Assembly: GCF_057098645.1 (NCBI RefSeq)
Contig: NZ_CM169472.1
Direction: 5' to 3' (one strand)
Length of the DNA: 64,000 nucleotides
This document shows positions 25,701 through 28,547 of the stretch, piece by piece. The number at the start of each line of letters is the position of its first letter. The stretch's first letter is position 1. The position numbers are program-made.

Positions 25701-28547
25701 ATAGTAACGATCAAATCACGTTTCGGTTCGAGGTGGCGTAAACGCAGCTCTTTAAGATTATCTGACAGCTCCCAGGCACCATCCACTTTGCCGCTTTTTT
25801 TATCGACGACATGAATAACGCGTGAGAAATCCTGATCCGGGTCGAGAGGGATGGAGAACGTCAGCACCAGCGTGACTGCACCATCAAGTTGGACTTCAGA
25901 GAGATCCAGCAATGTCAGCGCCTTACCGGCACTCTGTTGTGCCAGTTTTTGTCGCTCCGGCACGGAGAGTTTTGCTGAACTCGCGTTTTCTGAAGAGGCC
26001 GCTTTAGTAACTTCAGAAGGCGCATCTTTTTTCACCGCTGTTGGCGCGTTATCGTTGTTGTCGCACCCTGCCAGCGCCAGCATTAGCATGCAGGCGGCTA
26101 CGCGTAACTTTTTCATTTTTCATCCCTGCCACAATGGCCCGTTAGCAACGTCGAATAATTATTATGCGTGAGAATTTACGTTATGTAATTCAGTATCACG
26201 CCCATACAATCCGAATTTTAGTGAGAATTGTGGCTCAGACAGCCAAATCAGCCTCTTTTGCTTGTCGCTTTTCACTAAACATCCGACAATTTAGCCTAAC
26301 CCCGGCAAAAATGGAGATGCCTATGTCCACGACATGGTTTGTAGGAGCCGACTGGCTCGCCGAACATATTGATGACCCGGAAATTCAGATTATCGATGCC
26401 CGCATGGCGTCGCCTGGACAGGAGGATCGTAACGTTGCTCAGGAGTATCTGAATGGACATATTCCCGGCGCAGTGTTTTTTGATATCGAAGCGCTTTCTG
26501 ATCACACTTCCCCGCTTCCGCACATGCTGCCGCGCCCGGAAACGTTCGCCGTGGCGATGCGTGAATTAGGCGTTAACCAGGATAAGCACCTGATTGTCTA
26601 TGACGAAGGTAATCTTTTCTCAGCCCCACGAGCATGGTGGATGCTGCGCACCTTTGGTGTAGAGAAAGTGTCGATTCTGGGGGGTGGACTTGCAGGCTGG
26701 CAGCGCGATGATCTGTTGTTAGAAGAAGGTGCAGTAGAGCTGCCGGAAGGAGAGTTTAACGCCGCGTTTAATCCTGAAGCAGTGGTGAAAGTAACCGATG
26801 TGTTATTGGCAAGCCATGAAAATACGGCGCAAATTATTGATGCCCGCCCGGCTGCACGTTTTAACGCAGAAGTTGATGAACCTCGCCCAGGTTTACGTCG
26901 CGGACATATTCCCGGTGCATTGAACGTTCCGTGGACGGAACTGGTGCGCGAAGGCGAACTAAAAACGACCGATGAACTGGATGCGATATTTTTTGGTCGC
27001 GGCGTCAGCTATGACAAACCGATTATCGTCAGCTGCGGCTCTGGTGTAACAGCAGCCGTGGTTTTGTTGGCACTCGCGACGCTGGATGTGCCAAACGTGA
27101 AACTGTACGACGGCGCATGGAGTGAATGGGGCGCGCGGGCAGATTTACCGGTTGAGCCATTGAAATAAGCTTTTTACAGGCAATAAAAAACCGCCGAATT
27201 TGGCGGTTTTTTATTGCTGGTCTGGTTCGCGGCCTTTCCAGCAGGTTGACTTGTGTTGCCGGAGCAACGCAGGCACCCCACAGTGTTGAAATACTCTCTT
27301 TTATGCCTGGCTATGTCAAGATAATAAACAGAGTAATTATTCAAACATGAGAGTATTATTCGTGACGGCCCTTTTCGCCGTCTCGCAAACGGGCGCTGGC
27401 TTTAGGAAAGGATGTTCTATGACCGTAAATGCAGGCACCCCACAGCGCTTGCTATCGCGGCAATATCGCCAGTGGTGCTGTCGTGACGCGGTCTTCGCAT
27501 GGACCGCACAATGAAGATACGGTGCTTTTGTATCGTACTTATTGTTTCTGGTGCGCTGTTAACCGAGGTAAATAATAACCAGAGTCTCTCCGGCAACAAT
27601 TTACTGGTGGTTAACAACCTTCAGAACAGCAGGTAAGCCCGAATGCCGCCCTTTGGGGCGGCATATTTTAGATTATCCGGTTCTGTTTAAAGTCACGCAA
27701 AAAACCACCCCAACGACGTTCATAGAATGGCGCAATATGTTCGGTAATAAAGTGGCTAATTCCTTTTTCCCCTTTTTTCACCTGACAAATATCGATTGGT
27801 TCATCGGCAGGTAATGTATCGGTCGCTACACTTCCCGCCGCCTGAATAATTTCTTCGACATCACCATCGGCTTCAATGCCAATAAGTAAATTAGGCTGTG
27901 CCTCTTCGTTCTCTTTAATTGAACATATAAAAGCACGCTTCACCGGCTTAATAGTTTTAAATAAGGTGGTGAGTGAATCAATCATTTGTGCTGGCGGCTC
28001 TGCGACTTCCGATAATATCAGCGATTCACCGCCTTCCAGGATTTCCTGGCTGCTCAGCGGATTTCCCTCTTCACCAATCAACAAACTGATTTCACGCGGC
28101 ATAAATTCTTTACCGGTCGGCAGTTTGGCATTAAGGAAGAGCGTTTCGCCAAGGGTCATCTCAAACAATGTGCGAACGGGCATTACGACAAATGCCTGTT
28201 CGTCTTCAACCGCCTGTTGAAGTGCTTCTAACGAGGTAAAAAAAGGAATGACGCTGGTGCCGTCTTCTTTTTCCCAGTGCTGTAAATCAAGCGCGCTATC
28301 TTCAACCACAGCCTCGCCCTGCGCCGCCGTACCAGGCACCCAGACGGTGGATTCCAGTAGAGTACGGAAAAAGGCCGGGCGGTGCGCCGGTTCGGTTGCT
28401 GCTTTTTCCAGCAGGTCTTCAAGTTCATTTTTTGTTTCGGACATAAGAACCACAATTCATTCAACGTTCGGGGCACAAGTGCCTGATGCGCCATACTTAT
28501 CAGGCCTACAAGGGATTCACAATTTGTTGAATTTGCAATACTTTGTA

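Follow-up and report, generated by a model that had tools for sequence, protein, structure and literature searches.

A short direct repeat between sseA and sseB comprises the TimR seed and its site in the timP leader

The short direct repeat analysed here, located in a window of 64,000 nucleotides (the whole stretch of DNA under study; contig NZ_CM169472.1 of assembly GCF_057098645.1), is formed by the 5' end of the sRNA TimR, encoded on the opposite strand, and by its site in the timP leader, and the pairing of the two RNAs is real and under selection. The locus is a timPR type I toxin-antitoxin system between sseA and sseB. An antisense gene that is adjacent to its target gene without overlapping it is necessarily seen as a direct repeat in the DNA, and the present repeat is almost certainly such a signature of a trans-pairing, adjacent antisense pair at the timPR locus. 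The complementarity of TimR and timP (RyfB1-RyfA1), its enterobacterial conservation and its mechanism are already published, and timR as well as timP are already annotated in K-12; the assignment is thus a rediscovery.

Exact copies of GCAGGCACCCCACAG were confirmed on the plus strand at 27269-27283 and 27431-27445, as reported in an earlier note on this DNA, with a measured spacing of 162 nt (given there as ~160 bp). The sequence occurs exactly twice in the 64-kb window, both times on the plus strand, and no third site is present there at up to two mismatches. In the repeat finder (family D5) the repeat is 18 nt long, at 27266-27283 and 27428-27445, and 17 of the 18 positions agree; the single C/T difference between the 18-nt copies becomes a G·U wobble when the RNAs pair. 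Copy 1 belongs to the leftward gene, with the following features:

27185-27284, minus strand: timR (5' end at 27284), ~100 nt, encoding the antitoxin sRNA TimR, a homologue of RyfB1
27266-27283, minus strand: repeat copy 1, template of the TimR seed (TimR nt 2-19, 5'-CUGUGGGGUGCCUGCGUU-3')
27291-27319, minus strand: putative timR promoter (-35 TTGACA at 27319-27314, 17-nt spacer, -10 GAGTAT at 27296-27291)
27180-27217, both strands: bidirectional intrinsic terminator, a palindrome serving sseA (plus) and timR (minus)

The timR gene was placed from the annotation of K-12 timR (b4811) by means of nhmmer and MAFFT alignments; in K-12, timR is annotated on the minus strand directly after sseA and is labelled 'putative'. 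The first set comprised 17 further homologous loci, all of which conserve the TimR body; against the Rfam AgrB model this body scores 30.7 bits, below the gathering score of 40. Its predicted structure consists of (i) a mostly free 5' end, (ii) two hairpins and (iii) a terminator, with the palindrome at 27180-27217 representing the 3' hairpin and U-tract of the folded RNA. The inverted repeat of this terminator (I2) has arms of 19 nt that are 95 % complementary and not separated by a gap. The TimR 5' end and both promoters were assigned by homology and by-eye reading of the sequence, which suggests the A at 27284 as timR +1. The identical TTGACA-17-GAGTAT arrangement is found in the K-12 timR promoter region. 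A consensus promoter scan detected no promoter for either timR or timP, that of timR being missed because its -10 GAGTAT matches only 3/6 consensus positions. TimR is probably expressed in the window strain.

Copy 2 belongs to the rightward gene, with the following features:

27354-27359, plus strand: putative timP -10 TATTAT, located 6 nt before the start of the transcript; the -35 is weak
27365-27669, plus strand: timP mRNA, formerly the sRNA RyfA (Rfam RF00126)
27394-27400, plus strand: SL1 half of the SL1-SL3 pseudoknot (CGCUGGC), 7 pairs with 27468-27474
27419-27514, plus strand: upstream ORF (uORF) of 31 codons holding copy 2; its stop overlaps the timP start (AUGA)
27428-27445, plus strand: repeat copy 2, predicted TimR-binding site in the timP 5'UTR (mRNA nt 64-81, 5'-AAUGCAGGCACCCCACAG-3')
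27432-27451, plus strand: SL2 of the Rfam consensus structure (5' arm 27432-27438, loop 27439-27444, 3' arm 27445-27451)
27454-27487, plus strand: SL3, the apical part of which (27468-27474, GCCAGUG) joins the pseudoknot with SL1
27488-27507, plus strand: SL4, sequestering the timP Shine-Dalgarno (SD) sequence; 7 pairs, invariant in 15 species
27511-27636, plus strand: timP CDS, 41 aa (MKIRCFCIVLIVSGALLTEVNNNQSLSGNNLLVVNNLQNSR)
27643-27669, plus strand: intrinsic terminator of timP/ryfA (terminator scan; 3' hairpin of RF00126)

The transcript matches RF00126 over its full length (1-296; 311.4 bits vs. a gathering score of 80; E = 4.6e-87), and its start at 27365 corresponds to the 5' end of K-12 ryfA. 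The encoded protein agrees with a small TimP bearing a hydrophobic, signal-like segment at its N-terminus, matching NCBIfam NF040796 (toxic_TimP) with 80 bits (cutoff 45); timP is so annotated in the identical strain RM9872, and 21 of 22 loci have retained an intact orthologous TimP ORF. The leader helices SL1-SL4 are 89-100 % paired across 15 loci, and every element is present in the window allele. The pseudoknot has 100 % of its cells paired in these loci, with compensatory changes at 3 pairs, while SL2 has 96.2 % paired across 15 species and carries one A·C mismatch in the window allele. Copy 2 begins 4 nt before SL2, takes in its whole 5' arm and its loop, and ends on the initial base of its 3' arm. 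Its position inside the first small ORF (ATG at 27419 to TGA at 27512-27514) had been noticed correctly before; this overlap looks incidental. As the cause of the repeat the uORF was rejected: its frame is confined to one clade, being open only in Escherichia, Citrobacter and Superficieibacter, the start is unusable in E. whittamii, Yersinia, Rahnella and Erwinia, the product yielded no protein-family match, and in Salmonella a start mutation of the shorter uORF at the same position left timP translation unchanged (PMC11228461).

The arrangement of the two copies bears on their possible origin as remnants of a duplicated ryfA RNA segment within one transcript, corresponding to the "internal duplication of the RNA" proposed earlier. 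Such a duplication would agree with the shared orientation and proximity of the copies, and whole timR-ryfA cassettes are tandemly duplicated in other strains (also PMC5333039). However, copy 1 resides outside of the ryfA/timP transcript, 82 nt upstream of its 5' end, in an opposite-strand gene and on the sense strand of nothing. Moreover, comparison of the two halves of the region revealed that the likeness stops at 18 nt: when the upstream region was aligned locally with the whole ryfA RNA, the top alignment comprised just those 18 nt (score 31, compared with a mean of 16.7 and a maximum of 26 for shuffles). An internal duplication thus appears extremely improbable; the copies may go back to an ancient duplication of the target segment, but this would leave their maintenance unexplained. 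The other suggestion of the earlier note, paired binding sites for a regulator or sRNA, holds insofar as an sRNA is involved, but the binding site is copy 2 only; as copy 1 is the minus-strand template of the TimR seed, the copies represent regulator and target rather than two targets.

A contiguous-pair search was used to compare the minus strand of the upstream region with the timP leader for antisense matches. The longest match (16-21 nt) was found at the same two positions in the window and in 12 of 17 further homologous loci, the mRNA site falling within nt 64-87 and the sRNA starting 64-82 nt before +1 (399 nt before it in K-12). In the window, TimR and timP form 18 contiguous pairs (17 Watson-Crick and 1 G·U), and the duplex of TimR with the timP site has an energy of -42.6 kcal/mol (z = -4.9). 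Contiguous-pair search and short-segment duplex energies replaced full-length RNAduplex, which proved uninformative (-68 vs. a shuffle mean of -66) because it takes no account of intramolecular structure and permits very large loops.

The earlier note had regarded absence of the repeat in close relatives, with no covariation, as indicating a chance match. The comparison with relatives came out for function: the seed/target sequence is different in nearly every species, and both copies differ together, e.g., K-12 carries GCAGGTGYTTCACAG at both copies instead of the window sequence. A contig search with the degenerate pattern GCGGTCNNNGCANNGACCGCAC returned at least 120 loci, mostly chance matches in unrelated, mostly GC-rich genomes, and at least 15 real ryfA loci were among the matches listed, which were without Salmonella, Shigella, Hafnia and Serratia. 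Across 15 enterobacterial loci, compensatory double changes occur at 11 of the 22 intermolecular pairs (51 cells), and one intermolecular pair displays all four Watson-Crick types. Paired cells amount to 88.8 % in the true register vs. 33-47 % in shifted registers. The covariation score was reached by none of 500 shuffles, a statistic that overstates independence since the 15 loci are phylogenetically related and several G·U cells go back to common descent instead of separate events.

Computed energies agree with cognate pairing. Cognate combinations form 16-18 of 18 base pairs in the seed/target (non-cognate mean 14.4) at a mean duplex energy of -36.9 kcal/mol (non-cognate -21.6 kcal/mol), and for every timP site its own TimR is the best binder. 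The window and K-12 alleles discriminate mutually (-38.3 vs. -22.4 and -35.2 vs. -24.1 kcal/mol), and the computed mutual specificity of the alleles is about 13-14 kcal/mol.

Within the single window, the repeat is only modestly unusual by chance alone. A window of equal size and composition should contain about 3 exact 15-mer direct pairs, a number that would suit a functionless 15-mer occurring twice by accident, as would a third near-copy of the seed complement at 13254-13272, apparently coincidental. This near-copy was rejected as a second TimR target, since it lies antisense to a resident gene and ~0.1 such matches are expected by chance. On the other hand, only 0.12 pairs are expected at a distance of up to 300 nt (7 % of the simulated windows had one), and the only other close 15-mer repeat in the real window is a REP-element tandem at 35887-36057. 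The decisive argument comes from the covariation in relatives rather than from single-window statistics: the 11 compensatory pairs in 15 loci, unmatched by the shuffles, already refute an accident, and cognate duplexes are ~15 kcal/mol more stable than non-cognate ones, leaving chance with practically no probability.

The direction of the differences between the copies is likewise informative. Among the differing copy cells, 20 transitions preserve a G·U pair with minus-strand TimR, as compared to 6 opposite transitions and 3 transversions; this wobble-direction bias points to selection on an RNA duplex with the polarity of a minus-strand TimR. The bias would be meaningless for a DNA-binding site and thus counters the view that the copies are two operators of a protein co-regulating the divergent genes. 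Direct repeats around a divergent promoter region are a common layout for operators, and the -10 regions of timR and timP between the copies are mirror images (I6). Operators are, however, conserved towards a consensus, whereas here the sequence varies per species and only the copy-to-copy match is kept. Furthermore, copy 2 sits 64 nt inside the transcript, and the compensatory RNA mutants of Salmonella favour RNA-RNA pairing (PMC7667032), so that a pair of operators deserves hardly any credence.

For the pairing of TimR with the timP leader, the following course may be envisaged. Transcription of timR would proceed leftwards from about 27284 and that of timP (ryfA) rightwards; with copy 1 inside leftward timR, the first ~19 nt of TimR are the reverse complement of copies 1 and 2. 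The largely unstructured TimR 5' end would then pair with copy 2 in the timP 5'UTR. This target precedes the timP start codon by 66 nt, so that repression cannot act by blocking the ribosome-binding site (RBS). Rather, as suggested by the work on Salmonella, TimR may open SL2 and thereby destabilise the SL1-SL3 pseudoknot; as initiation at the SL4-trapped SD would depend on this pseudoknot, synthesis of the membrane toxin TimP would be blocked. The case for repression of timP translation via the pseudoknot comes from the orthologue: in Salmonella, the pseudoknot was reported to be essential for translation, the trapping of the timP SD by SL4 was described, and TimR was found to protect the SL2 loop and to disrupt the pseudoknot (Eleftheraki 2024, PMC11228461). 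In the window strain the same mechanism probably applies, though the A·C mismatch in SL2 and a uORF longer than that of Salmonella mean that its details could differ.

The system of Salmonella Typhimurium (PMC7667032, PMC11228461, 2026 PMC13000454) resembles the window locus in (i) divergent, non-overlapping timR and timP genes, (ii) pairing of an 18-nt TimR 5' segment at SL2, >60 nt upstream of the RBS, and (iii) the SL1-SL4 leader with its SL1-SL3 pseudoknot, the TimP family and the terminator layout. The 18-nt complementarity of the TimR 5' end to the timP 5'UTR was described for Salmonella by Andresen (2020, PMC7667032), including toxicity of TimP on overexpression, repression of its translation by TimR (also in vitro) and restoration of repression by compensatory M6 mutants. 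Differences concern the seed/target, which is another allele in the window, the uORF (31 codons ending on the timP start in the window vs. 8 codons in Salmonella) and the extra gene STM2534 between sseA and timP of Salmonella.

The same gene pair is known under the older names RyfB1-RyfA1 from Shigella dysenteriae, where a divergent sRNA (~100 nt) shows complementarity with RyfA1 over 16 of 18 nt and RyfB1 specifically lowers RyfA1 RNA levels; RyfA was read there as a non-coding regulator (Fris 2017, PMC5333039). S. dysenteriae harbours two tandem cassettes (ryfB1-ryfA1-ryfB2-ryfA2), the window only one. In K-12, timR (b4811), ryfA (b4440) and timP (b4812) form the orthologous sseA-sseB locus; the register of pairing is that of the window, with 20 contiguous pairs when G·U is counted. 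The copies (GCAGGTGYTTCACAG at both) are ~480 bp apart in K-12-type loci as compared to 162 in the window; the K-12 interval contains a stub of ~20 nt from the ryfA 5' end, together with a second TimR-like gene, which is not annotated and whose seed is non-cognate.

In the zorO-orzO, shoB-ohsC, tisB-istR-1 and dinQ-agrB pairs, the antitoxin sRNA is likewise encoded next to the toxin gene without overlapping it (PMC7667032), and for zorO-orzO the complementarity amounts to 18 nt (cited in PMC5333039). Toxins and RNAs of these four pairs are unrelated to timPR, and they require mRNA processing to activate translation, whereas timP represents a structural switch without processing (PMC11228461, PMC13000454). 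In such divergent pairs the short pairing takes place in the toxin 5'UTR, well away from the RBS, and hence shows up as a short direct repeat in the DNA; the seed and target of a divergent type I system can be recognised in this form from the raw sequence.

An exact deletion as predicted from recombination between the copies was observed in four lineages that are independent of one another and each have a different repeat sequence, namely E. coli 06-00048 (window allele; found from a partial-length match), Citrobacter amalonaticus, Yersinia similis and Yersinia aleksiciae. The TimP ORF is intact in all four loci. Synthetic deletion-junction queries failed to separate deleted from intact loci, because the latter also cover the query in two joined pieces. 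While the repeat itself adds nothing new, its recurrent deletion is a small new point. The seed and target copies, a direct repeat, lie on either side of the two promoters and may for this reason provide a built-in, one-step self-switch-off. One may tentatively speculate, without favouring it, that recombination or replication slippage between the 18-nt copies deletes the promoters of timR and timP along with SL1, which translation requires, silencing toxin and antitoxin at once without an antitoxin-less intermediate. If general, the direct-repeat layout of divergent type I toxin-antitoxin loci would shape their decay.

That the repeat does recombine, as evident from these four loci, also speaks for gene conversion (concerted evolution), instead of selection on RNA pairing, keeping the copies identical. 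Yet 18 nt are very short for homologous conversion, and the wobble-direction bias together with the experimental need for complementarity (PMC7667032) indicate selection on pairing. Conversion as the sole cause is therefore very improbable, but it could contribute to the likeness of the copies.

With respect to its distribution in E. coli, the timR 5' block (copy 1) of the window allele was detected in 579 of 5,426 complete genomes, including O157:H7 and O145. The complementarity overlaps a 5-nt 'variable region' that separates the pathogen-associated RyfA1 from the RyfA2 type (PMC5333039); this region forms the centre of the repeat and reads CACCC in the window vs. TGTTT in K-12. The window belongs to the pathogen-associated (RyfA1-type) specificity allele. 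A 51-nt block around copy 2 gave megablast matches in 53 genomes, compared with 579 for the copy-1 block. The apparent mismatch between the copies is an artefact, since flanking SNPs defeat the 28-nt megablast word size: in the inspected loci of O157:H7, PE164 and A30, the core CAGGCACCCCACAG is present in both copies.

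The 15-mer GCAGGCACCCCACAG occurs twice on the + strand, at 27269-27283 and 27431-27445, each copy being exact as reported in an earlier note, and a search of the whole window at up to 2 mismatches yielded no third occurrence. A repeat finder extends the match to 18 nt (27266-27283 and 27428-27445, 17/18 identical, 162 nt spacing), beyond which there is no similarity: the best local alignment of the upstream region with the whole ryfA RNA comprises those 18 nt only. Simulated windows contained ~3 exact 15-mer pairs anywhere and 0.12 within 300 nt; judged alone, the repeat is no more than modestly improbable. 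Apart from it, the real window has just one close exact repeat, a tandem pair of REP-type elements (35887-36057, 91-nt spacing). A REP-like element between sseB and pepB (28548-28592) matches naRNA4 below threshold (40.3 bits vs 59.5).

The window, here identical to E. coli O145 strain RM9872, harbours the following features.

26323-27168, + strand: sseA, flanking the region
27180-27217: palindromic terminator ending TimR, common to sseA and timR
27185-27284, - strand: timR homologue, by homology to K-12 timR (b4811)
27266-27283: repeat copy 1, inside timR, encoding TimR nt 2-19 (5'-A CUGUGGGGUGCCUGCGUU GC...)
27319-27314 (TTGACA) and 27296-27291 (GAGTAT), - strand: putative timR promoter, 17-nt spacer, read from the sequence upstream of 27284
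27365-27669, + strand: ryfA RNA (Rfam, 311 bits vs gathering score 80)
27394-27400 with 27468-27474, + strand: SL1-SL3 pseudoknot, 7 bp, 100% paired with three compensatory pairs in 15 species
27419-27514, + strand: upstream ORF, 31 codons, containing copy 2, its TGA overlapping the timP ATG (ATGA)
27428-27445, + strand: repeat copy 2, timP mRNA nt 64-81
27432-27438 (SL2 5' arm) and 27439-27444 (SL2 loop), + strand: together with the 4 nt before SL2 and the first base of its 3' arm, the extent of the TimR target (Rfam structure)
27488-27507, + strand: SL4, trapping the SD, invariant in the 15-species alignment
27511-27636, + strand: timP, 41 codons, passing the NCBIfam TimP model (80 bits vs cutoff 45)
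27668-28444, - strand: sseB, flanking the region

Since the timR homologue occupies 27185-27284 and ryfA 27365-27669, copy 1 is not part of ryfA and lies 82 nt upstream of its 5' end; the earlier placement of the repeat in the ryfA region holds for copy 2 only, which is indeed located within a small ORF. An internal duplication of the RNA, one origin suggested for the repeat, is excluded by the position of copy 1 outside the transcript and by the end of the homology at 18 nt. The K-12 annotation likewise has timR on the minus strand directly after sseA, and the K-12 sequence shows the same TTGACA-17-GAGTAT arrangement; in the window this promoter is termed putative, since a consensus promoter scan missed it. 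TimR is predicted to fold into two hairpins and the terminator, leaving most of its 5' end unpaired. An Rfam search of TimR returned no family at threshold; its body (27182-27263, -) has a sub-threshold match (30.7 bits vs gathering score 40, E = 0.017) to AgrB, the antitoxin sRNA of dinQ-agrB. An inverted repeat (27290-27305/27342-27357; 16-nt arms, 81% complementary) makes the divergent -10 regions (AGAGTAT on each strand) mirror images, and in K-12 the timR -35 lies in the loop of the palindrome CTCTCTTTT-TGTCAAGC-AAAAGAGAG.

With timR transcribed from the opposite strand, the direct DNA repeat specifies complementary RNAs. The sole difference between the copies (C/T, 27268 vs 27430) becomes a G·U wobble, so that TimR and timP mRNA form 18 contiguous pairs (predicted energy -42.6 kcal/mol, z = -4.9 vs shuffled seeds), and the TimR seed has no better non-self site than copy 2 in the whole window. 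Thus, of the paired sRNA or regulator sites proposed earlier, the sRNA is borne out as TimR, but not the two sites: one copy encodes the seed and the other is its complement. A near-copy of the seed complement (GCAACGCGGGCACCCCAUU, 13254-13272, +) could pair with TimR nt 3-20 (17 contiguous pairs, -35.0 kcal/mol). It was rejected as a target: it is antisense to a 424-aa minus-strand gene (13130-14404), whose mRNA thus resembles TimR and is not complementary to it, and ~0.1 chance matches are expected for this G/U-rich seed.

Among ryfA loci gathered from one-genome-per-species contigs plus E. coli genomes, every locus has a TimR-like gene upstream on the opposite strand, conserved in its body and variable at its 5' end. 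Of 17 further homologous loci, 12 have their longest antisense match (16-21 nt) at the corresponding two positions with a different sequence, and two more loci keep the register with one internal mismatch. In a concatenated TimR-timP alignment (15 loci, 22 intermolecular pairs), both sides changed at 11 pairs (51 cells) and none of 500 shuffles reached the observed covariation score, counts that derive from related sequences and hence do not represent independent events. Two measures do not depend on independence, namely the slid-register control (88.8% paired cells vs 33-47% when shifted) and the diversity of pair types (all four Watson-Crick types at one intermolecular pair). Cognate combinations form 16-18 of 18 pairs (non-cognate mean 14.4) at a mean duplex energy of -36.9 kcal/mol (non-cognate -21.6), and by predicted energies every timP site has its own TimR as its strongest partner. 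This covariation rules out a chance repeat.

A pair of protein operators on the DNA is hard to reconcile with these data, since the sequence is not conserved among loci and differing DNA cells comprise 20 transitions keeping G·U with the minus-strand TimR, 6 opposite transitions and 3 transversions (again related sequences, not independent events), a wobble bias without meaning for a DNA operator; published compensatory RNA mutants (PMC7667032) also speak against it. Gene conversion may help to keep the copies alike, but leaves the wobble bias unexplained.

Each sequence-level defining feature tested was present, and by these the locus is predicted to belong to the timPR (RyfA/RyfB) type I toxin-antitoxin family. 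The same layout, in which a short-seeded antitoxin gene lies beside its toxin gene without overlapping it, is found in zorO-orzO, shoB-ohsC, tisB-istR-1 and dinQ-agrB (PMC7667032). The finding is already known, since the TimR-timP complementarity, its conservation across enterobacteria (as depicted in Fig. 8B of PMC7667032) and the mechanism are published.

Onto the gene pair, complementarity, covariation, allele specificity and leader structures observed in this analysis, functional steps may be projected from orthologues. In Salmonella, TimR is complementary through its 5' end to the timP 5'UTR over 18 uninterrupted nt; mutation on either side abolishes rescue from toxicity, a defect that the compensatory pair reverses, and timP translation in vitro is inhibited by TimR (PMC7667032). 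There, TimR protects the SL2 loop and opens the SL2 3' side, prefers the pseudoknot-containing conformer and destabilises the pseudoknot (PMC11228461), without which initiation at the SL4-trapped SD fails (PMC11228461; see also PMC13000454). SL1, SL3, SL4 and the pseudoknot described for Salmonella are all present here, supported by the 15-species alignment. By analogy, TimR binding to the SL2 target would destabilise the pseudoknot and prevent initiation at the SD in SL4; the distance of 66 nt from the target to the timP start codon is consistent with indirect repression.

The overlap of copy 2 with the upstream ORF looks incidental, since an open frame is confined to the Escherichia, Citrobacter and Superficieibacter clade while Yersinia, Rahnella and Erwinia lack the ORF and keep the pairing site, and since in Salmonella, which has a shorter uORF at this position, mutating the start codon of that uORF had no effect on timP translation (PMC11228461). 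The upstream ORF starts with ATG in the window and GTG in K-12, and E. whittamii has no start. The ATGA overlap with timP is a layout typical of translational coupling.

Within E. coli, identity to the window across the region is no higher than 80-90% in 4,810 of 5,425 genomes. In K-12-type strains timR has GCAGGTGcTTCACAG and timP has GCAGGTGtTTCACAG, thus differing from the window at five positions in both copies: the repeat centre (27436-27440 and 27274-27278) reads CACCC here and TGTTT in K-12. It appears to be the 5-nt 'variable region' which, according to Fris et al. (PMC5333039), separates pathogen-associated RyfA1 from RyfA2 and overlaps the RyfB1 complementarity. Of 5,426 complete genomes, 579 have the window-type timR 5' region, O157:H7 and O145 included; O157:H7 has a shifted exact match of 16 nt, CAGGCACCCCACAGTG. 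K-12-type loci (in K-12 itself L002 855-955, ~1036-1055 and 1182-1276; same layout in L124 and L125) contain two TimR genes, between which lie a ~20-nt ryfA 5' stub and AT-rich filler. The proximal TimR copy of K-12, unannotated, has its own TTGACA-17-GAGTAT promoter and terminator and an E. whittamii-type seed predicted to be weak on K-12 timP (-25.1 vs -35.2 kcal/mol for annotated timR). The arrangement resembles a decayed form of the S. dysenteriae tandem ryfB1-ryfA1-ryfB2-ryfA2. Locus decay by a different route is seen in E. coli P276M (L126, 1229-1466), where ryfA homology reaches only to model position 245, TimP loses its reading frame after 7 residues and the annotation lists sseB as a frameshifted pseudogene.

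Three species representatives show a TimR body (as antisense) continuing through a single element copy into the SL2 3' arm, both promoters and SL1 being missing; a fourth such locus, in E. coli, has the same junction (...GCAACGCAGGCACCCCACAG|TGCTTGCTATCGCGG...).

Single-copy fusions (coordinates of each locus)
C. amalonaticus (L104), 8025-8335, same sseA context
Y. similis (L072), 4526-4832
Y. aleksiciae (L102), 5130-5440
E. coli 06-00048 (L130), ~690-745, window-type allele

To judge from their sequence, these junctions are the exact product of deletion between copies 1 and 2 in four independent loci, and since the same junction recurs, the repeat is also a recurrent deletion substrate by which both promoters are lost at once. 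All four retain an intact TimP ORF. Strain 06-00048 was found via a truncated match in the search with the window-type timR 5' block and, among the 579 genomes with this block, it alone has the block truncated; an IS3-family element lies immediately upstream of its fused locus.
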